Source: a bacterium
GTDB lineage: Bacteria; Patescibacteriota; Patescibacteriia; UBA10025
DNA: 64,000 nt
Assembly (NCBI GenBank): GCA_021815445.1
Contig: JAKAGM010000001.1
Location: forward strand, 154,910 to 218,909
Reading direction: 5' to 3'
Below are positions 12,826 through 47,034 of the stretch, one piece after another (the stretch's first letter is position 1; every line of letters starts with the position of its first letter). Position numbers and translations under genes: made by a program. The notes under the pieces are model-generated. The model had not been told where the DNA came from, did not search any database, and saw only the letters and a program-made list of their open reading frames with translations.

Positions 12826-15405
12826 TCACTTCAGCAGAACCATCTTCTTAATCTCCACCGCCTGATCGGTGACGAGACGGTAGAAGTACATGCCCGATGC
12901 GTACTGTAAAGCGTTCCACTGTGCAGTGTGCTCTCCGGCAAGCTGGTTCTCATCGGCAAGAGTCTCAATCCTCTGGCCAAGGATATTGTAAATGTCCAAC
13001 CTGACATGAGTACCCACCGGAAGAGTGTACCTGATCGTCGTGCCCGGGTTGAACGGGTTCGGGTAATTCTGGGACAGGGAGAATGTCCGAGGCAGAGTAT
13101 TGTCTCCTCCATGTGCCGTGATCTTAGGCGAACCGGGAATGGTGCGCCTAATGACGATGCACCTGTCCGCATACCCGTCACTGTTGTAATCCAGCCAGAA
13201 TTCTTGGGTGGACGGGCGGAATACGCCGATGTTGGTGCCGCAATTACCGGTCCAGTCGCCGACGATTGGCGAATCACCCGCATCTCCATACGTCCGGGAG
13301 AAGTCAGCAACGTGGTCGTTATCGTAATCCAACCAGAAGGTCCTGGTAGAAGGACGGTAAATACCGATGTTCCAGTCCAGGTCGCAGTCCCAATCACCAA
13401 CAAGAGGGATATCACCGTTATCCCCGAAAGTGACGGAAAAATCAGCTACACCGTTGTTGTCGTAATCTAACCAGAATGTCCGGGTAGAGTGGCGAAAGAT
13501 TCCTATCCGGGTATAGCCGTTGCCGAGCCAATCTCCGGCTAGAGGAATATCGCCGCCATCACCATAGGTGATGCCGATGTCCATCTGGCCGTTGTTGTCG
13601 TAATCCAGGTAAAACACCCGGTAGGCCGGACGATAGAAACCGACACTGTAGTAGGTATTGCCGTCCCAGTCACCGGCCAAAGGTTTGTCTACGGCTGAGC
13701 TGTAATGAAGCTCCAGCTCCGTATACCCGTCATTGTTGGTGTCCAGATAGAAGGTTTGCGTCTCGTCGGCATAGACACCGACCTCGAAGATCCCGTCCCC
13801 GTTCCAATCACCTGCGATGGGGGTGACGGTCAAGTTGGCGAATGACTCAGAAGAGTCACTGCCTGCGGCGTGATAGGTCCCGCCCGAGCAGGTTCCAAGC
13901 ACGTCAACCGCCGGACTGCCAGTCTCATAGATACGATGTTGAGTACCGGCGCTGTTCTTGAAGTCCTGGCACCACTTCCCATTCAAATAGAAACGATCGA
14001 TGGTGGCGCAACCAAATAGGTTTACCCCACCAAGTTCATCGTAGCGGGATTTAATGCTCCCATACACCCAGTAGGCCTCGTTCGTGGCCGAAGTATTGCA
14101 CTCCCAGTTCTCTTGGTCGTACATGATCCTGCCGGATCCGTCGTCGCCACCAGTGAATTCCTGAATCAGGATACTGCCGGAAAGAACATGGACCTGACCG
14201 TCATTCCCAGAGCTTGGGTTCCCTACATCGCGGCGGGCGCCGTTGCGGTCATAGGCATCGGTAAAGAGGTAGGAGTACTGGTTGTTCCATCCGGAAGAAG
14301 TCCAGCCGGGTGTCGTCGTCGTGTTGCACTTGATGGTGGTTCCGTCCTGGATGTACCCTTTCTGGAAATCCTGACGCCAGTGGTCTGGGTTCTCGGTGTA
14401 CTTGTACCGGTTGGTGATCGGCATTCCAAGGGCCGAATTCGGCCCTCCCTGTCCTGACGGACCGTCTGAACAGCTGGGCGTTGGACAGCTGCCGCTGCAT
14501 TCTGCCTCAAGGTTGTCCCACGTAGCCCATTCTTGATCGCCGACACAGTAGGCATGTCTTGCGCCACCTAGGGCGTCGTATACGACCGCGCCAGCATAGA
14601 AGCCGCCACCGTAAACCGTGCGATAACAATTGACAGCAGTGTTTGTGCCAGACTGGTAAAGCGAGTTTGGATTGTACGCATGGTACCAACCAATCGATCC
14701 AGCCGTTCCACCAAGCCATTGATTCGGCGACTGTGACACGGCGTATGGGTTGCGGTCATTCAGAGCAGTAGATTTCCGGAGGTCAATGATGTTGGAGTTG
14801 ACAGAGGTGTAGAAAGTGCTCGCAGGTGGGCTGCTTGAGCAGTCGCACGGATCGGGGTACCCATCGGTGACGGTTTGACCAAGGTAGTTCTTAAAATCAA
14901 CATACACCTCAGTCATGTCCTTTGTCGCAGGGTTCGCCGTCCCTTGCGTGTTGTAGTGTATATGCGATGGCCATTGGTCATCCGTTACGCCTGTTGTCCC
15001 GCAGAATCCAACCACTTGCCCCTTCTCAACCTTCTCGCCGACGCTCACGACAATCTCTGTTTGGTGTGCCAGCCGGCCATAGTAGCCGTCCCCATAGTCA
15101 ATTAGGACAACATTGCCATACGGACTATTTGCTCCACTCTGTTGCTTGGATCTTCCAGCAAACACTATTCGCCCTGAATCTGGAGCTAGAAGTGGATACC
15201 CCAGGTCGTTGGCGCCGGTTCCATAATTGTAGTCCCATGCGTCTTCGCCGGAATGGGATACGCTCCCATTCCAGCCTTGCGCACACCACCATGTATCACC
15301 TGCCATAAACGGTAGCCCGATGTCTGGCGGCGTTGCTAAGGCTTTCGAACTGCCCAGAGCGACTATGACAGCCGCTGCCACGAAACGACCGATCGTCCTC
15401 TTCAT
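12826..15405 (-). CDS. secreted multidomain protein: M23 (LytM) peptidase + FG-GAP/VCBS-like repeats + type IX secretion system C-terminal sorting domain
   Basis: 859 aa. Signal peptide. M23 motifs (HSGEDAWDYNYG ... GQVVGFCGTTG ... SHIHY). Five ~46-aa repeats of P[LI]AGDWDGNG...G[IV][FY]R....F[YW]LDYDNNG. The final ~80 aa (LSQNYPNPFNPGTTIRYTLPVGTHVRLDIYNILGQRIETL...ASGMYFYRLVT) match the Por_Secre_tail/T9SS CTD consensus closely. Strong AGGAGG RBS. Confidence 0.8.
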   Translation of the reverse strand: MKRTIGRFVAAAVIVALGSSKALATPPDIGLPFMAGDTWWCAQGWNGSVSHSGEDAWDYNYGTGANDLGYPLLAPDSGRIVFAGRSKQQSGANSPYGNVVLIDYGDGYYGRLAHQTEIVVSVGEKVEKGQVVGFCGTTGVTDDQWPSHIHYNTQGTANPATKDMTEVYVDFKNYLGQTVTDGYPDPCDCSSSPPASTFYTSVNSNIIDLRKSTALNDRNPYAVSQSPNQWLGGTAGSIGWYHAYNPNSLYQSGTNTAVNCYRTVYGGGFYAGAVVYDALGGARHAYCVGDQEWATWDNLEAECSGSCPTPSCSDGPSGQGGPNSALGMPITNRYKYTENPDHWRQDFQKGYIQDGTTIKCNTTTTPGWTSSGWNNQYSYLFTDAYDRNGARRDVGNPSSGNDGQVHVLSGSILIQEFTGGDDGSGRIMYDQENWECNTSATNEAYWVYGSIKSRYDELGGVNLFGCATIDRFYLNGKWCQDFKNSAGTQHRIYETGSPAVDVLGTCSGGTYHAAGSDSSESFANLTVTPIAGDWNGDGIFEVGVYADETQTFYLDTNNDGYTELELHYSSAVDKPLAGDWDGNTYYSVGFYRPAYRVFYLDYDNNGQMDIGITYGDGGDIPLAGDWLGNGYTRIGIFRHSTRTFWLDYDNNGVADFSVTFGDNGDIPLVGDWDCDLDWNIGIYRPSTRTFWLDYDNDHVADFSRTYGDAGDSPIVGDWTGNCGTNIGVFRPSTQEFWLDYNSDGYADRCIVIRRTIPGSPKITAHGGDNTLPRTFSLSQNYPNPFNPGTTIRYTLPVGTHVRLDIYNILGQRIETLADENQLAGEHTAQWNALQYASGMYFYRLVTDQAVEIKKMVLLK

Positions 15406-29083: not shown

Positions 29084-29713
29084 ATGGACGCGTACGTACA
29101 ATTTAAATGGAAATACAACCTCATCCGTCTTGGTTTTTTAGGATGGATGGTTTTTGAACTCCTCAACTGGGTAAAGATTTTACATTTTTCTCTTGATTTT
29201 TCATGGGCGGGATTACTGCTCACTGTCAGCTGGATTTGGGGAAGCATTGAATTCGCGTCATGGAAGCTCAGAAAATCAGGAATGGAGTCTTTGCCATGGG
29301 CAGCGTACCTCATAGGATTGGTCGGTACAAGCTGGGACGCATTTGGCGATGTAGCCCACCTATATTCGAGTGTGATGTATTATGACAAATATGCTCATTT
29401 TTTCGGCGGAGGTTCTGCTGCCATCGTGAGTTTATTTATTTTGTGGCGCTTGGTGCAAGGAGGAAAAATACTTCTCGATCCGCGGATGATGGGATTCTTT
29501 GCAATTTGTATGGCCAATTTTCTCGGGATCCTGTATGAACTTGAAGAGTATTCAGAATCTTACTTTTTTCATAACAATAGAATGGGGGACGCGTTCGATA
29601 CATCCACCGATGTGATAAATAATTTCCTGGGCGCTGCGGTAATGGTGGTAATAGCACTCATAGTACTCAGGAAAAAAAAGAATTCGGAGAGCGCTCATCT
29701 GACTGCCGTATAA
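29084..29713 (+). CDS. hypothetical membrane protein, tandem paralog A
   Basis: Shares with the next gene the pattern NLIRLGFL...SWxWGSxEFxSxKLxKSG...AxYLIGLxG...YDxxxHFFGGxxAA. Confidence 0.5.
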   Translation: MDAYVQFKWKYNLIRLGFLGWMVFELLNWVKILHFSLDFSWAGLLLTVSWIWGSIEFASWKLRKSGMESLPWAAYLIGLVGTSWDAFGDVAHLYSSVMYYDKYAHFFGGGSAAIVSLFILWRLVQGGKILLDPRMMGFFAICMANFLGILYELEEYSESYFFHNNRMGDAFDTSTDVINNFLGAAVMVVIALIVLRKKKNSESAHLTAV

Positions 29714-29716
29714 TTT

Positions 29717-30394
29717 ATGTTACGGAATGTGTTCATCAATATCATCCGTCTCGGTTTCCTGGTCTTGGTATCTTTCGAGGTGCTTGGCCTCACACGCATT
29801 GTTCAAGTTGATAGTCCCTACTCCTGGCTTGGATTTATAATCACCGGTTGTTTTATCTGGCTTTCTCTGGAGATTGTTTCTTCTCGCCTAAAAAAGTCAG
29901 GCTTGGAGCAGCTGTCACCTGCGATGTATCTCATCGGTCTCATTGGCAGCTACTTAAATCTTTTTGGCATTTTGACAGGGCTTTTTACGCGCTATGGCTG
30001 GTATGACCAGGTCATCCACGGCTTTGGGGGCGCCGCCGCGGCATTGGTTTTTTGCTCCGTTTTCTCTAAACTGCAAATTGCGCGGAAGATATCCGTCGGT
30101 CCGCGTCTTCTCGGCTTTTTCACATTTTGCTCGACTATGCTGCTAAGTTCTCTCTATACGACCGAAGAGTTCCTCGAAACAAAGATTTTTCATGACGGAC
30201 GCATGGGCTCAGGGATTATAGGAGGATTTCACGCCGATAATCATTTTCTATGGAATGCCATTGGGGCTGCTCTCGTTGCGTTTGTTTCAGCTGTTGTCAT
30301 AAGAAGGCGTGAAAATTCGCTTTCCTACTCCAAAAAGTCTCTTTCTCTGCGCCGGGGCTCTTCTCAACTGACGAGAGATCCGGTCAAATCCTGA
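29717..30394 (+). CDS. hypothetical membrane protein, tandem paralog B
   Basis: Paralogous to 29084-29713 (NIIRLGFLVLVSFEV...AMYLIGLIGSYLNLFG...YDQVIHGFGGAAAALV). Starts 3 nt after the previous stop. Confidence 0.5.
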   Translation: MLRNVFINIIRLGFLVLVSFEVLGLTRIVQVDSPYSWLGFIITGCFIWLSLEIVSSRLKKSGLEQLSPAMYLIGLIGSYLNLFGILTGLFTRYGWYDQVIHGFGGAAAALVFCSVFSKLQIARKISVGPRLLGFFTFCSTMLLSSLYTTEEFLETKIFHDGRMGSGIIGGFHADNHFLWNAIGAALVAFVSAVVIRRRENSLSYSKKSLSLRRGSSQLTRDPVKS

Positions 30395-30554
30395 CCGTAT
30401 CAGGTAAATATTACCCCGCAGGCATCTTGAAATTTTTTCAAACTTATTTGGTAGTATTGCGCTTTTCTTGATACCACCTTATACTATAAGGGTGTTGATA
30501 AGTCGACACTTTCGAAATCTGCATACATCTTTGATCGAAAAGGAGGTGATTCGA

Positions 30555-30623
30555 ATGGCAAAAAAGAAAGCGAAGAAACGGAAGGTTGCAAAACGGAAGA
30601 CTGCAAAGAAACGCAGGAGATAA
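30555..30623 (+). CDS. 22-aa polybasic micro-protein MAKKKAKKRKVAKRKTAKKRRR (bS22/ribosome-associated-like or nucleic-acid-binding peptide)
   Basis: Strong RBS AAAGGAGGTGA 7 nt upstream of the ATG. Followed 18 nt later by a canonical terminator. Below ORF-track cutoff. Confidence 0.45.
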   Translation: MAKKKAKKRKVAKRKTAKKRRR

Positions 30624-30640
30624 ATAATATTTACAGCAGG

Positions 30641-30677
30641 AGCTCCTCCATGTTTTTATGGGGAGCTTTTGTTTTTT
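30641..30677 (+). terminator. rho-independent terminator after the micro-ORF
   Basis: AGCTCCTCCAT-gttttt-ATGGGGAGCT followed by tttgtttttt. Confidence 0.6.
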
Positions 30678-30704
30678 GACGGGGCGTGAGTCGCATTCTA
30701 TACT
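30676..30704 (+). promoter_or_regulatory. sigma70-like promoter TTGACG-17-TATACT for the DMT transporter gene
   Basis: ttgacggggcgtgagtcgcattctatact. Confidence 0.5.
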
Positions 30705-30737
30705 GACTTCAGTGTGCAGGGATATTGTATTCACCAT

Positions 30738-31661
30738 ATGAACAGACAAACCTATCTTGGCATCAGTTTGGCGCTCGGTACGGCGGTTATTTCCGGCGCA
30801 TCGAATTTTATTGCGAAGATTGGAGTTACCGTCGTGAATAATGGCGTTGTGTTTACCGCACTTAAAAATTCTCTTGTCGCCGGTGCGCTCATCGGCATTA
30901 TCCTGCTCCTGAAACGCCTGCCAGAGCTCAGGAAGCTTTCTCACAAAGACTGGGCGAAACTGGCCGCAATCGGCGTTGTCGGAGGCGGAGTTCCGTTCGT
31001 TCTATTTTTTACGGGATTGACGCATACGACAGCTCTAACTGCAGGGGTTATTCATAAAACACTGTTTTTTTGGGTAGCGTTGCTTGCCGCTCGTTTTTTG
31101 AAAGAGCGGATTGGCCGGGCCCAGACGGTTGCATTCTTTTTTCTCATTGGCGGTAATTTCGTACTCGGCGGTCTTCGGGGATTGACGTTCGGAGCAGGCG
31201 AGCGGATGATTTTGGCGGCGACAATATTTTGGGCGATTGAAAATGTCATTGCAAAACGTGCGCTTAATAACATTCCCAGTCTTGTTGTCGCCGGAGCGCG
31301 GATGACATTCGGGTCCGTCATACTGTTTGCCGTCGTGGGGCTCCAGGGAAATTTCCATCTCATCGGATCATTGGATGCTCGGCAATGGCTGTGGACGCTT
31401 ATTCCGTCCGCGCTGTTGCTTGGGTACGTACTTACCTGGTACTCGGCGCTCAGACGCCTGTCCGCCACTTTTGCAACGTGCCTGTTGGTGCCGGCAACAT
31501 TTGTGACTGGTTTACTATCGCAGGTATTTCTCGACAAGTCTCTTACCGCGAACGACTTAATGAGCGGTGCGGTTGTCCTCGCCGCATGCGGAGTCCTTAT
31601 GTATGGCGCTTATCATTCGACGAAATATGCAGTCCCAAGCTCGCAGCGCGCGGATGCTTGA
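30738..31661 (+). CDS. DMT superfamily (EamA-like) permease
   Basis: Ten predicted TM helices in two EamA-like halves. Start at MNRQTYLGISL. Confidence 0.7.
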   Translation: MNRQTYLGISLALGTAVISGASNFIAKIGVTVVNNGVVFTALKNSLVAGALIGIILLLKRLPELRKLSHKDWAKLAAIGVVGGGVPFVLFFTGLTHTTALTAGVIHKTLFFWVALLAARFLKERIGRAQTVAFFFLIGGNFVLGGLRGLTFGAGERMILAATIFWAIENVIAKRALNNIPSLVVAGARMTFGSVILFAVVGLQGNFHLIGSLDARQWLWTLIPSALLLGYVLTWYSALRRLSATFATCLLVPATFVTGLLSQVFLDKSLTANDLMSGAVVLAACGVLMYGAYHSTKYAVPSSQRADA

Positions 31662-32388
31662 CGGCGTCGCTCGCTGTAGCCGATACGCATTTGGGCCGAA
31701 TAAACTGAGAATGTGCGGACCTGATGCAAATCGGGAACTTTCCGCGTATATGCGGGAGGAAGTGAGCGATGACGGGCTCACCCACATCCTGTCCCAGTTC
31801 AAAACGCTGTATCCATACCTGCGGTCAATAGCTGAGGCGAACCGCATCCGTGACCCCTTCGATCCGCGTGTCGTCGAGGCGTATTGGATTGGCAACGAAC
31901 TTCTCGAATCAATTACGCAAAAAACATTTTACACGCACCTGACGGACGCGCTTCATCTCAAGAATAAGACTTCAACCCGGGATTTCGATGAACTCGCGCA
32001 GAAACTTCCTCAGGGTGCGCGCATGCACCACTCGTTCCATGTTTTTAACGTGTATAAGCGTACCGGCAACCTCGAAATCCTCCATTCTCTCGAGAGCATG
32101 GACGCGTGCAGGATCAGCTGGGGACATGTTACGCGCGTTGACGGCCCGCGGGTGTTTATCGACAGGAAACCCCTTATGCTTGACGGCCACAGGTTATTCC
32201 TCGGAAAGTGCGAAGAGTACGAAATAAAGCGACAGTTAGATGTTGATGATATTCTTGATGAGGTCGAGGTTGGCGATTGGATAACGCTCCACTGGTACCG
32301 TCCGTGCGAGATTGTGTCAGCGCAGCATATACGCTGGCTTGAGCTCTATACGCAAAAGCACATTGCTCTTGCGAACCAGACGCTATAA
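31654..32388 (+). CDS. hypothetical conserved protein (244 aa), translationally coupled to the DMT permease and followed by the hydrogenase maturation protease
   Basis: ATGCTTGA start/stop overlap with the upstream gene. Cys-containing N-terminus (ARCSRYAFGPNKLRMCGPD). No recognisable family. Confidence 0.45.
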   Translation: MLDGVARCSRYAFGPNKLRMCGPDANRELSAYMREEVSDDGLTHILSQFKTLYPYLRSIAEANRIRDPFDPRVVEAYWIGNELLESITQKTFYTHLTDALHLKNKTSTRDFDELAQKLPQGARMHHSFHVFNVYKRTGNLEILHSLESMDACRISWGHVTRVDGPRVFIDRKPLMLDGHRLFLGKCEEYEIKRQLDVDDILDEVEVGDWITLHWYRPCEIVSAQHIRWLELYTQKHIALANQTL

Positions 32389-32392
32389 GGAT

Positions 32393-32770
32393 ATGGAAGT
32401 GTGGATTTTCGGCAACCCTGACCTTCCTGAGGACTCGCTCCCGATACGGCTTCACTCAGAACTCATGAAACGCTTCCCTGCGCTGAGTTTTCGAATTCTC
32501 GATCCCTTGGATGAGTGGCAAATTCCAGACAAACTTGAGATGATAGATACGGTCCGGGGCATCGACCATGTTCGCGCTTTCACATCGCTCGATGAATTCG
32601 AAGGTTCGCCTCACGTGACCATGCACGATTTCGACCTCGGGATGCAGCTTCGTTTTTTGGCAAAACTCAAAAAACTTCCTCCGTTCATAATGTACGGGGT
32701 GCCCGATACTTTTTCAGTCGGCCAAGCGCTTCGCGAACTTACGCCGATGCTCGATCAACGCGCAAGGTAA
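32393..32770 (+). CDS. hydrogenase maturation endopeptidase (HycI/HoxW/FrhD-like)
   Basis: 126 aa. N-terminal MEVWIFGNPDLPEDSLP resembles the GNxxxGDDGxG motif region. Conserved Asp/His candidates are present (DTVRGIDHV, HVTMHDFDLG). Consistent with the C-terminal extension on the adjacent large subunit. Confidence 0.55.
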   Translation: MEVWIFGNPDLPEDSLPIRLHSELMKRFPALSFRILDPLDEWQIPDKLEMIDTVRGIDHVRAFTSLDEFEGSPHVTMHDFDLGMQLRFLAKLKKLPPFIMYGVPDTFSVGQALRELTPMLDQRAR

Positions 32771-34043
32771 GGAAGTGTGACGCGCAACTCATGCAGGGAT
32801 CATATGCCCGTATGAGTTTTTCGAGCTCGAGCTGGAGCGTTTCCTCGGACGGGCCGGACGGGAGGAGCTCCTCGACGCGGCGAGCCATGTCCTGCTCGAT
32901 GTTAATCTGATTCTGGCCCGTCGGCACGACTATTTCGCCTTCAATGACGTTGCCGTCTTTGCCGATGGAAACTTTGTGATAGAGCGTACCGCGGGGAGCT
33001 TCGATCACTCCGATGCCGGTTCCCTCGGTTCGTGACGGCGCGACAATCTTTTCCGGTACAAACGTATAGTGCTCGAGGATATCGAGAGAATCATCGACGC
33101 AATGCAAGAGCTCGATAGCCTGGGCGAGGTTATTATGGAAAATGTTGGTCGAGGGAAAGCGATTGAGCGTCTGCGGGATACTCGCGCGGGTTTTTACGTG
33201 GAGTGTATCTTTTGCGAGATTGATGCGAGCGAGCGCGCCCACCATGAACGATTTCCCTTTAAAGGCGTACCCGGAAGCGTGTGAATAGGGGATAATGACA
33301 TGCTCAAGGTGGCTGCGGTAATCAGTTTCACGGATGAAATCGCCGGCATCACTTACAATATTCCCTTCGAGGTAATTGAACGGATTTGCGACAAGCGCCA
33401 TAAACTTAGTTTTTCTGTCAAACGCGTAATCGGATTTTTCGAACCGTTCAATTGTTCGGAGGACAGCGGGACGGATTTCACGAAGTTTGGCGACCGCTTG
33501 TTTGATCTCTTCTGGCTTTGGAATCTTAAAAAATCCGCCGATGGTCGGATTCACGGCATGTACGCTCCTTCCCGCTATGATGATTGAGAGGTAATTTCCC
33601 GCTGCCTTAATATCGAACGCATCGTGAAGTATCTGGTGCTGGACGGGATCGTTTTCGTCAAACTCCAGAAACGAATCTTTGCCGTACATGTCGGGCATGG
33701 CAAAAAGGTAAAGGTGGAGGGCGTGGTCGCGAATGTTCAACCCGTACATCGTCAGTTTCTTCATGATCTGTGATTGCGGCGACGGTGCAATACCCAGCGC
33801 ATGTTCACAAGCTTCGATGCTGCAAATGAGGTGGGCGTTTGAACAGGTGCCGCAAATGCGCGCAAGGAGAGTCGGAAGCATCCGGTATGGTTTGCCTCGC
33901 ATTGCCTGGGTGTAAAAACGTTTGAACTCAGTGATCCCGAATCTGCAGTGCTCAACCTTTCCTTTTGTAATTTTCACGTCGAGAGTGGCCGCGCCCTCGA
34001 CCTTGGTAATTTCTTTTGTCAGAGAGAGGTCTACCTGGTGCAT
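32739..34043 (-). CDS. [NiFe]-hydrogenase large subunit (group 3-like), with C-terminal extension after the terminal His
   Basis: L1 motif RICGTCSNAH (RxCGxCxxxH) and L5 motif DPCMSCASH (DPCxxCxxH), then the 11-residue tail FLTLRVDRASA. N-terminal VEGAATL lies where the usual R[IV]EGH block is expected. 434 aa. Confidence 0.85.
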   Translation of the reverse strand: MHQVDLSLTKEITKVEGAATLDVKITKGKVEHCRFGITEFKRFYTQAMRGKPYRMLPTLLARICGTCSNAHLICSIEACEHALGIAPSPQSQIMKKLTMYGLNIRDHALHLYLFAMPDMYGKDSFLEFDENDPVQHQILHDAFDIKAAGNYLSIIIAGRSVHAVNPTIGGFFKIPKPEEIKQAVAKLREIRPAVLRTIERFEKSDYAFDRKTKFMALVANPFNYLEGNIVSDAGDFIRETDYRSHLEHVIIPYSHASGYAFKGKSFMVGALARINLAKDTLHVKTRASIPQTLNRFPSTNIFHNNLAQAIELLHCVDDSLDILEHYTFVPEKIVAPSRTEGTGIGVIEAPRGTLYHKVSIGKDGNVIEGEIVVPTGQNQINIEQDMARRVEELLPSGPSEETLQLELEKLIRAYDPCMSCASHFLTLRVDRASA

Positions 34044-34048
34044 AGATA

Positions 34049-34564
34049 TTAAACAATATGAAATTCTTTCAACAGACCCGTGAGAACGCTCATGAAGGTG
34101 GCTTCATTCATCGGGCAGCCCGGCACGTTGATGTCGACGGTAATGACCTCGGAAAGTTTCTGTGCCTTCGGCAGGTACGCGAAACGTTCGAGAACGGGCT
34201 GTATTTCCTTAAGTCTCCCGGGATCAAACTGGTTTCGCTGCGTTGAGGGTAGTCCTATCACTGCACAGGCCCCGATAGCGACAACCTTGTGTGATTTTTT
34301 TCTGATCTCTTTCACCCGATCCACATGGTTTTTTGATGAAAGCGCGCCCTCAATAAATGCCACATCCAGCTCGTCCAGGATGTTATGCGACTGCAGGACC
34401 CTTGCGTGGCGAATGTCCAATACTCGTTTCCATTCCTGCCAATGTTCGTTCATCAGCTCGGTAAAAAGGATAGTACTGTCCTCGCAGCAGCTGAACGTAA
34501 ACCAGCCTATACGCAGTTTTTTTACTGATTTTCCACCTAATGAATTATTCGGCTGGTTATGCAT
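34049..34564 (-). CDS. [NiFe]-hydrogenase small subunit, minimal NuoB-like form (proximal [4Fe-4S] cluster only)
   Basis: 171 aa. Cysteines in FSCCEDS, AIGACAV and the GCP motif VDINVPGCPMNEAT. No medial or distal cluster cysteines. Confidence 0.8.
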   Translation of the reverse strand: MHNQPNNSLGGKSVKKLRIGWFTFSCCEDSTILFTELMNEHWQEWKRVLDIRHARVLQSHNILDELDVAFIEGALSSKNHVDRVKEIRKKSHKVVAIGACAVIGLPSTQRNQFDPGRLKEIQPVLERFAYLPKAQKLSEVITVDINVPGCPMNEATFMSVLTGLLKEFHIV

Positions 34565-45846: not shown

Positions 45847-46035
45847 ATGGATTCAAAAAGAGAGTTGGAACTGGCCGCTCAGTCCGTGAGCGCCAAGAAG
45901 TACGACGAGGCTGCCGCACGAAGCCTGCTGGTGATTGCCCGTTCGTTGCACAAAATCACTGATTTACTGGAGAAGCAGGTGAAGCCACGCCGTTCGCGTC
46001 CGAAACGGGCCGTCGCCAGGGCCAGACGCCGGTAG
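45847..46035 (+). CDS. hypothetical small protein (62 aa) with Arg-rich C-terminus
   Basis: Own promoter (TTGACA-16-TACGAT, extended TG). GGAGGG RBS 5 nt upstream. Confidence 0.35.
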   Translation: MDSKRELELAAQSVSAKKYDEAAARSLLVIARSLHKITDLLEKQVKPRRSRPKRAVARARRR

Positions 46036-46161
46036 TTCATTTGCGAAGGTATGTTTTCCGCCGATCTCGCTCATCCTATACCAGGGTCCACGCTTGACCG
46101 GCTTTTTTATTACTAAAAAAATTAAGTTGATTTTCTGAGTATACTCGCGTATAATTTCCTT

Positions 46162-47034
46162 ATGCAGGCGATAGTTGTGGAAAATTTAACGAAACATTTC
46201 GGGAAGACGAAAGCAGTCGACGGGGTATCGTTTTCCGTAGAGCAGGGGGAAGTGTTCGGTTTCCTCGGTCCTAATGGCGCTGGCAAAACGACGACTATCA
46301 GATGCATGATGGATTTTATCCGTCCGTCAGGCGGCACTGTCTCACTTCTCGGCCTGGATGCACAAAAGGACTCTGTCGAAGTGAAAAAACGAGTCGGCTA
46401 TCTTTCGGGATATGTGCGGCTTTACGGTTCATGGACGGGTGATGATCACATCAGGTTCGCACAGCGCTTGAGCGGCAGCCACGACAGAGCGCAAGAGCTT
46501 GCCAACCGGCTTAATTTCAACCCCAAGGTAAAAGCCAAAGCGCTCTCGACGGGCAATAGGCAAAAGCTCGGCCTGATTTTATCGCTGTTGAATGATCCTG
46601 ACCTGATCATCATGGACGAACCGACCAATGCGCTCGATCCGCTCCTTCAGAACGCCGTCTATGGGCTCCTCGACGAAGCAAAGAAGCGCGGCGCGACTAT
46701 ATTTATGTCATCGCACAACCTGAATGAGGTGGATCGCATATGCACGAATGTATGCGTCATCAAGCAGGGGAAAGTTGTCGCAACGGACGCTATTAACGAT
46801 CTCAAGAAATTACGCCTCTTCAGAATACATGCACACGTGGCAGGATCCATATCGCCGGCGATATTCACTTCCCTCGGCGCGGAGGTCCTCGAACACCGCA
46901 ACGACCACATTACCATGAAGATCAAGGGCGACGTGACGCCTATCATCAAGGCGCTCAGCGGGTATAAACTTCACGATCTCGAGGTCGAGCATGCGACTCT
47001 CGAGGATATTTTTCTCGAATATTACCAAGCCTGA
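46162..47034 (+). CDS. ABC transporter ATP-binding protein (ABC-2 type)
   Basis: Walker A GPNGAGKTT, signature LSTGNRQKLGL, Walker B IIMDEPTNALD. Confidence 0.85.
   Translation: MQAIVVENLTKHFGKTKAVDGVSFSVEQGEVFGFLGPNGAGKTTTIRCMMDFIRPSGGTVSLLGLDAQKDSVEVKKRVGYLSGYVRLYGSWTGDDHIRFAQRLSGSHDRAQELANRLNFNPKVKAKALSTGNRQKLGLILSLLNDPDLIIMDEPTNALDPLLQNAVYGLLDEAKKRGATIFMSSHNLNEVDRICTNVCVIKQGKVVATDAINDLKKLRLFRIHAHVAGSISPAIFTSLGAEVLEHRNDHITMKIKGDVTPIIKALSGYKLHDLEVEHATLEDIFLEYYQA

Follow-up and report, generated by a model that had tools for sequence, protein, structure and literature searches.

A polybasic 22-codon micro-ORF with its own expression signals in a Patescibacteria genome, a candidate minimal H1-tail-like polycation

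A micro open reading frame (micro-ORF) of 22 codons, located in a 64,000-nucleotide stretch of the metagenome-assembled genome of an uncultured patescibacterium (GenBank: GCA_021815445.1, contig JAKAGM010000001.1, positions 154,910 to 218,909 of the forward strand; GTDB: Patescibacteriia, UBA10025), encodes a strongly basic peptide. This peptide may be a minimal polycation similar to the C-terminal tail of histone H1, which would bind nucleic acids or other polyanions by charge. We put the rough probability of this reading, which is drawn by analogy, at 0.45. The whole stretch is called the window here and coordinates refer to it. A preliminary description of the window had proposed the micro-ORF, and it is indeed present on the plus strand, from the ATG at 30555 to the TAA ending at 30623, with the 22 amino acid (aa) product MAKKKAKKRKVAKRKTAKKRRR.

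In the mechanism that we propose, the locus would be a self-contained coding cassette composed of a promoter, a 5' untranslated region (UTR) of ~63 nt that opens with a hairpin, an 11-nt Shine-Dalgarno (SD) sequence, the 22-codon ORF and an intrinsic terminator. If the micro-ORF is transcribed and translated as these signals suggest, its product would be a minimal functional member, with about four units, of a class of stand-alone Lys/Ala-rich polycations that resemble the H1 C-terminal tail. The peptide would bind its target, which may be DNA, RNA or possibly polyphosphate, irrespective of sequence and would neutralise or condense it, with no defined pocket being fitted.

The micro-ORF and its expression signals

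The peptide is made up of ten lysines, five arginines, four alanines and one valine, one threonine and one methionine. K and R together account for 15 of the 22 residues (68%); the value of 82% in the preliminary description was a miscount. The net charge is +15, and after Met1 acidic, aromatic and large hydrophobic residues are all absent. The peptide can be parsed into four units of the A-K-K-(K/R) type, namely AKKK, AKKRKV, AKRKT and AKKRRR. Among the 63,408 stop-free segments of 22 aa in the six frames of the window, at least 14 K+R were found solely in segments overlapping the micro-ORF, which indicates a composition beyond chance. There are in-frame start codons 5' of the ATG (TTG 30468, TTG 30531 and GTG 30546). 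All three lack an SD, GTG 30546 being itself part of the SD of the micro-ORF, and therefore ATG 30555 is taken as the start. The window belongs to a metagenomic contig of 877 kb, and the gene caller of the source assembly (ENA: ERZ27237554, contig k141_1660939) places no gene at 30395-30737.

Versions of the peptide with 22, 25, 30 and 51 aa were looked up exactly in a collection of 15 billion proteins and none of them was found. This absence is uninformative, because ten products of the look-alike micro-ORFs described below were looked up in the same collection and were missing as well. A HMMER search with the 30-aa extended frame against 1.84 billion representative proteins gave 0 matches. 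The non-basic residues do not cluster significantly on one face of a helix, since 34.5% of the shuffles (0.3453) did as well, and an amphipathic helix was rejected on this basis. The minus-strand ORFs across the site (30484-30606 and 30444-30944) were also rejected, having no SD and no plausible product. Codons 2-4 (GCA AAA AAG; 30560-30566, plus strand) include a slippery heptamer of the dnaX type, A_AAA_AAG, which is in the zero frame and 10 nt past the SD end. Read off the sequence, the -1 frame from this heptamer would give an acidic product of ~40 aa running through the terminator. The heptamer is probably just a side effect of the Lys codons.

The extended SD AAAGGAGGTGA is located at 30539-30549 on the plus strand. 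It ends 5 nt before the ATG, and its GGAGG core is positioned 8 nt upstream of the ATG, so the spacing of 7 nt given previously was approximate. Within the window the 11-mer is found as a single copy across both strands (128 kb of sequence), compared with a chance expectation of ~0.03 copies by our own arithmetic. The strong SD of the preliminary description is confirmed. Its statement that most genes lack an SD also agrees with our count, in which ~42 of the 59 large ORFs had no SD core of at least 4 nt at their first start. Good SDs were found on other genes of the window too, for example at 12826-15405, 24437 and 48722, and several of them are 6-7 nt long. The SD of the micro-ORF lies within a stretch that is unpaired in the centroid fold.

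A putative sigma-70-type promoter of the micro-gene is found at 30457-30485 on the plus strand, with the -35 box TTGCGC (30457-30462), a 17-nt spacer and the -10 box TATACT (30480-30485). Its -35 box matches three of the six consensus positions, and a consensus promoter scan did not list it. Judging by its sequence, it is likely the promoter of the micro-gene, from which the transcription start site is predicted. TATACT is the dominant or enriched -10 box of this genome: 17 of its 39 copies in the window are intergenic, versus three of the 21 copies of TATAAT, with an intergenic share of 15% of the window. Many of the intergenic copies read GGTATACT and stand a few bases before a start codon. 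Furthermore, TATACT frequently ends 6-12 nt before the start codon (for example 21345/21358, 46150/46162, 52508/52526 and 26451). These short distances suggest many mRNAs that are leaderless or have very short leaders, which would explain the scarcity of SDs.

The predicted transcript of ~190 nt folds into a 5' hairpin, an open region with the SD and the ORF, and the terminator. The 5' hairpin has 8 bp and is located at the predicted transcript 5' end (30491-30510, plus strand). It is found in the minimum free energy and the centroid folds of both 30490-30682 and 30490-30655, and is possibly a stem-loop that stabilises the mRNA. The intrinsic terminator (30635-30677, plus strand) consists of a 17-bp stem with one bulged U (30647), a 4-nt loop and the U tract UUUUGUUUUUU, which ends at 30677. 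Its hairpin (30635-30673) has a predicted free energy of -23.4 kcal/mol with a z-score of -6.07, and none of 200 shuffles was as stable. The terminator was also picked up by a terminator scan, and in its lower stem the U tract takes part in A-U and G-U pairs. The preliminary description had called it perfect and placed it 18 nt past the stop codon. It is a strong terminator whose GC-rich core begins at that distance, but the stem is interrupted by the bulged U30647 and the hairpin base is positioned 12 nt past the stop.

Taken together, the coding signals, namely the unique SD 11-mer, the ATG 5 nt further on, the open ribosome-binding site and the strong terminator, are far above chance. The micro-ORF had also been described as stand-alone. 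This is plausible with respect to the TTGCGC-17-TATACT promoter, but on the upstream side no terminator shields it from the neighbouring operon. The terminator scan found none between the end of the upstream gene at 30394 and the micro-ORF, and for this reason transcripts of the upstream operon may read through into it. The preliminary description had also named an annotated non-coding RNA (ncRNA) over the region as a finding that would refute the micro-ORF. No known RNA family matches there: Rfam searches of the whole window at the gathering threshold and of 30300-30800 at E-values up to 10 gave nothing relevant.

Look-alike micro-ORFs in other bacteria

We searched JGI metagenomes for a degenerate DNA pattern encoding MAKK[KR]-x-[basic]4-x-A-[basic]3-x-A-[basic]3, which was derived from the window peptide. 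The scan detected 16 loci, every one of which is an ORF starting with MAKKKAKKKK, with lengths of 20, 36, 51, 58, 69, 79, 83, 99 and 110 aa. A AAGGAGGT-type SD is present on nearly all of these ORFs and a terminator-like hairpin follows most of them. A slightly longer version of the pattern found nothing in viral contigs. Viral-contig matches to a looser pattern were rejected as analogues, as they are C-terminal tails of ~47-aa phage proteins. In three IMG/VR phage contigs (L142, L144 and L145) these ~47-aa proteins are acidic at the N-terminus and end in a polylysine tail (...EAEF...LKKEV[TN]MAKKKVKKKKKAKKK...), and what seems to be a AAGGAGGT SD before an internal Met is in-frame coding sequence for KKEV.

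For the comparison we use a working class of stand-alone MAKKKAKK... micro-ORFs, which is defined here and is not a curated family. Its members have the N-terminus MAKKKAKK, an extended AAGGAGGT(GA) SD and an own terminator, and are separate from the neighbouring genes. The window micro-ORF has this N-terminus, the SD and its own terminator, and it is separate from its neighbours. Pfam and NCBIfam gave no match for class members of 36-110 aa, which is a weak negative given the low complexity of these sequences.

The closest analogue is a 36-aa ORF of Sedimentisphaerales (Planctomycetota), which is identical to the window peptide at 12 of the first 14 residues and has the same AAAGGAGGTGA SD. 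In four more genomes, with LysA proteins 77-90% identical to that of the first, the corresponding site upstream of lysA also has an ORF with this SD. At this one syntenic site the ORF lengths in the five genomes (L162-L166) are 26, 35, 36, 41 and 43 aa, and there is a highly conserved 5' region of ~170 nt. On the 3' side of the ORF there are two hairpins in which compensatory changes are seen, and a strong terminator, followed by a conserved CTTGCAAT-17-TATACT promoter of lysA. We regard the Sedimentisphaerales ORF as an independent unit because it has its own terminator, after which lysA has a separate promoter. A Lys leader for lysA was rejected here, as the terminator and then the conserved promoter intervene and a search of the region upstream of lysA gave no Rfam or riboswitch match.

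Another example is a marine group of six contigs of up to 193 kb, in which tandem micro-ORFs of 20 and 22 aa are located between ddl and a cyclophilin gene. The first encodes MAKKKAKKKKAAKKKGAKKR and the second MAKRKAAKKKKKAAKKKGAKKR, and each has its own SD and terminator. In the first ORF all substitutions are synonymous or change one stop codon into another, and in the second the indels are in frame. This variation indicates that micro-ORFs of this type are under coding constraint and are genuine coding genes.

Across the analogous micro-ORFs, position, SD and composition are held and the repeat number drifts. The window peptide aligns to the class members with z-scores of 2.4-6.7 above composition-preserving shuffles. 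For members that were not selected with the pattern, the z-scores are 4.3 (the Sedimentisphaerales ORF L163), 3.1 (the marine 22-mer) and 2.4 (the Sedimentisphaerales ORF L166).

Comparison with H1-like proteins and alternative explanations

The preliminary description had likened the peptide to ribosomal micro-proteins of the bS22 type or to nucleoid-associated peptides. The nucleoid-associated option is the better fit in that the A-K-K-K-type order lies above shuffles (z 2.4-4.3 for the unselected members), but it found no support in H1-like profiles. H1-like Lys/Ala-rich proteins, such as Hc2/HctB, Pseudomonas AlgP, the H1-like domain of Streptomyces DdbA and the C-terminal tails of actinobacterial HU, are dominated by Lys together with Ala, Thr and Pro in pentamer-like units. 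The window peptide, too, has pentamer-like repeats rich in Lys, with Ala, Thr or Pro as spacers. The size of chlamydial Hc2 varies by the number of lysine-rich pentamers, and the repeat number differs between relatives (PMC2848022), as it does in the planctomycete analogues. We read the peptide as an H1-like polycation because its analogues vary the repeat number with the composition kept, as H1-like proteins do. A further likeness would be the presumed charge-driven binding of polyanions, either DNA or polyphosphate granules, on which the H1-like protein AlgP acts (PMC9239181). The H1-like proteins differ from the peptide in their length of ~100-350 aa, compared with 22 aa and about four units here. 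Moreover, the H1-like sequence is a domain or a tail there and the product of a stand-alone micro-gene here, with an Arg-richer C-terminus and no Pfam match. For a sequence so simple common descent is not demonstrable, and the class may well have more than one origin.

Several points weigh against an H1-like polycation. With 22 aa the peptide is far below any characterised H1-like protein. No H1-like profile of Pfam or NCBIfam matches it (among them Hc2, Pfam: PF07382, and AlgP), which is a weak negative for a low-complexity sequence, and likeness among such sequences says little about whether they are related. The pattern derived from the window peptide itself also served to pick part of the sequences with which it was compared. 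Transcription, translation and binding of the peptide are all read from sequence. Retention at a syntenic site, a trait of the class, is not seen for the window ORF: the polybasic micro-ORF is absent at six syntenic loci of Kerfeldbacteria-like relatives (11-21 kb each, with 5-10 kb flanks recovered). Eleven further loci of the Candidate Phyla Radiation (CPR) in GTDB, found via the downstream EamA gene, have no polybasic micro-ORF either. The micro-ORF also adjoins a 225-aa gene with no homologue in any database searched, and so could be an element that is young or restricted to its lineage and has not acquired an established function.

As regards this absence, the six relatives are distant, with a best EamA identity of 61%. 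The homologues of EamA point to Patescibacteria, the closest being Kerfeldbacteria-like with 57-61% identity. A search of 5.8 billion proteins gave no homologue of the 225-aa membrane protein encoded by the adjoining upstream gene, and for this reason we place the micro-ORF in a lineage-specific segment. In the databases searched there is no close relative of the host for the comparison of synonymous and non-synonymous changes that the preliminary description had proposed, and the absence in the distant relatives therefore says little on the conservation of the micro-ORF.

We consider it unlikely that the peptide is an rRNA-embedded ribosomal micro-protein, similar to bS22, eL41, mS38, bL37 or bTHX, that fills a pocket of the reduced CPR ribosome. 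The bS22 pocket in the 30S subunit is formed by h2/h27/h44/h45. It is a single pocket shared by bS22, eL41 and mS38, and in Borrelia the 30-aa bS22 with 61% K+R had gone unannotated until it was revealed by cryo-EM alone, with further cases predicted by the authors (PMC10618245). The Borrelia bS22 is the strongest precedent for a ribosomal role. These proteins have 22-33 aa and 60-70% K+R, are probably helical on RNA and often unannotated (PMC10618245), and the window peptide is comparable to them in size and composition (eL41, for instance, has 25 aa and 68% K+R). In the order of its residues, however, it is no closer to bS22/bL37-type proteins than composition gives. Local alignments to bS22 of three phyla, eL41, bL37 and bTHX were no better than 5000 composition-preserving shuffles (z -1.2 to +0.7), with z-scores of -0.82 for Msm, +0.52 for Fjo and +0.70 for Bbu bS22 and -0.19 for eL41. 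Pfam (including the AURKAIP1/COX24 domain of bS22, PF08213), NCBIfam and the PDB chains were unmatched at E-values up to 10, in searches where the HMMER filters penalise low complexity; as a positive control, the Msm bS22 query retrieved the bS22 and mS38 PDB chains. Anchors of His, Leu, Ile or Trp, or of Met beyond the first residue, are also missing from the peptide, whereas bS22 and eL41 carry His, Met, Leu and Ile anchors, with motifs such as THK/KKH and, among the basic residues, also Trp in this type of protein. The closest analogues vary in length from 26 to 43 aa, which sets them apart from pocket-bound ribosomal peptides; Borrelia bS22 has a single substitution across the genus (PMC10618245). 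The bS22-type option thus has no sequence support and is weakened, yet it keeps some probability because the three known bS22 share just 19% identical residues, so that undetected homology is to be expected. A lone strong SD in an SD-poor genome also marks a ribosomal gene in Flavobacteriales, namely rpsU of Flavobacterium, a small basic-protein gene encoding bS21 (PMC9976891, PMC13000453). As for bS21 in Bacteroidia, the very strong SD here might feed back on free anti-SD. In the window, however, several genes have SDs of 6-7 nt, which argues that the ribosomes are not SD-blind, the product is unrelated to bS21, and anti-SD sequestration is without evidence in CPR.

It is also quite unlikely that the locus contains no functional protein gene, the micro-ORF then being a recent or decaying frame or the purine-rich part of an ncRNA or of the 3' UTR of the upstream operon. 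The failure to find orthologues at the syntenic loci and in the protein collections, the adjoining gene without homologue and the missing terminator between this gene and the ORF would all agree with it. Stop codons are rare in purine-rich sequence, so the open frame alone is weak evidence. But a unique 11-nt SD at the right distance to the ATG, a plausible promoter and a dedicated terminator are jointly unlikely without selection, no Rfam family matches, and analogous ORFs elsewhere have synonymous-only variation and conserved synteny. A third explanation starts from the gene that follows, an EamA/DMT transporter gene on the same strand (30738-31661, plus strand). The micro-ORF would be a leader peptide rich in Lys and Arg codons that tunes read-through of the terminator into this gene via charged tRNA-Lys and tRNA-Arg. 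Its architecture of a short ORF with 15 Lys/Arg codons, ending 12-18 nt before a terminator, and a transporter gene ~60 nt further on is like that of the trpL, hisL, pheL and thrL attenuators, where one class of codons prevails in a short ORF that is directly followed by a terminator and a same-strand gene. Moreover, the CCUCC on the 5' side of the terminator stem is able to pair with the SD in the fold of the partial transcript. That fold (30490-30655) is no better than shuffles (z 0.06) and offers no stable antiterminator, and the centroid of the full transcript (30490-30682) shows the 5' hairpin and the terminator alone. Furthermore, EamA has a promoter of its own between the terminator and the gene, at the boundary of the micro-unit (30676-30704, plus strand; TTGACG, 17 nt and TATACT at 30699-30704), which matches ten of the 12 consensus positions. 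The TATACT box is found directly 5' of EamA in three of the relatives (L013, L015 and L017), none of which has the polybasic upstream ORF, and the block of EamA, DUF6390, a 125-aa protein and NiFe hydrogenase is syntenic in all six Kerfeldbacteria-like relatives with the polybasic ORF in none. A terminator and a conserved promoter likewise stand between the planctomycete ORF and lysA. The micro-ORF is independent of EamA in this arrangement; an EamA attenuator was rejected for the window, and a leader function is altogether improbable.

Returning to the H1-like polycation, the observation on the class is of more interest than the single ORF of the window. The peptide may represent a widespread class of AKKK-repeat polycations of 20-45 aa that annotation has missed, with dedicated cassettes of a maximal SD and a terminator in Patescibacteria, Planctomycetota and further lineages, although we regard a class of such breadth as doubtful. 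Small lysine-rich binders of nucleic acids are already known. In the literature we found no description of stand-alone polylysine genes of 20-45 aa in bacteria, and the stand-alone version with a maximal-SD cassette is apparently undescribed. The look-alikes of Planctomycetota and of the marine group suggest that some bacteria could use short polycationic proteins, so far overlooked, to neutralise and organise DNA, RNA or polyphosphate. In the ultra-small CPR cells such a peptide could serve chromosome or ribosomes as a bulk counter-ion in the manner of protamine, or else be an unrecognised CPR ribosomal protein. If the peptide is made, a genome of ~0.9 Mb would spend one of its best cassettes on a 22-mer with a charge of +15 that is absent from the annotation and from protein databases. 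The nucleoid proteins and the ribosome composition of CPR bacteria are poorly known, and the peptide is a concrete candidate which can be synthesised.

Neighbouring genes and further small genes

Upstream of the micro-ORF, two adjacent membrane proteins with weak DUF2238 matches are encoded at 29084-30394 on the plus strand, one of which is the 225-aa protein. This lineage-specific segment is inserted upstream of the conserved block of EamA, DUF6390 and hydrogenase. Both in the window (30738-34564) and in the six relatives (L013-L018), genes for the large and small subunits of a NiFe hydrogenase follow on the reverse strand after EamA, DUF6390 and the 125-aa protein.

Some relatives have a different small gene directly upstream of EamA, which encodes a protein of ~60-80 aa and has its own terminator (~9650-9900 in L016 and 9674-9919 in L017 and L018). 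The protein resembles a membrane protein with two transmembrane segments (...ESLVLFGGILLAFSLLRNRRRSSKRM...).

Another small gene below the 120-aa filter of the ORF list is found in the window at 45848-46036 on the plus strand. It encodes 62 aa (MDSKRELELAAQSV...KQVKPRRSRPKRAVARARRR) with an Arg-rich C-terminal tail, is preceded by the SD CAGGAGGG, and is located in the intergenic gap before the gene starting at 46162.

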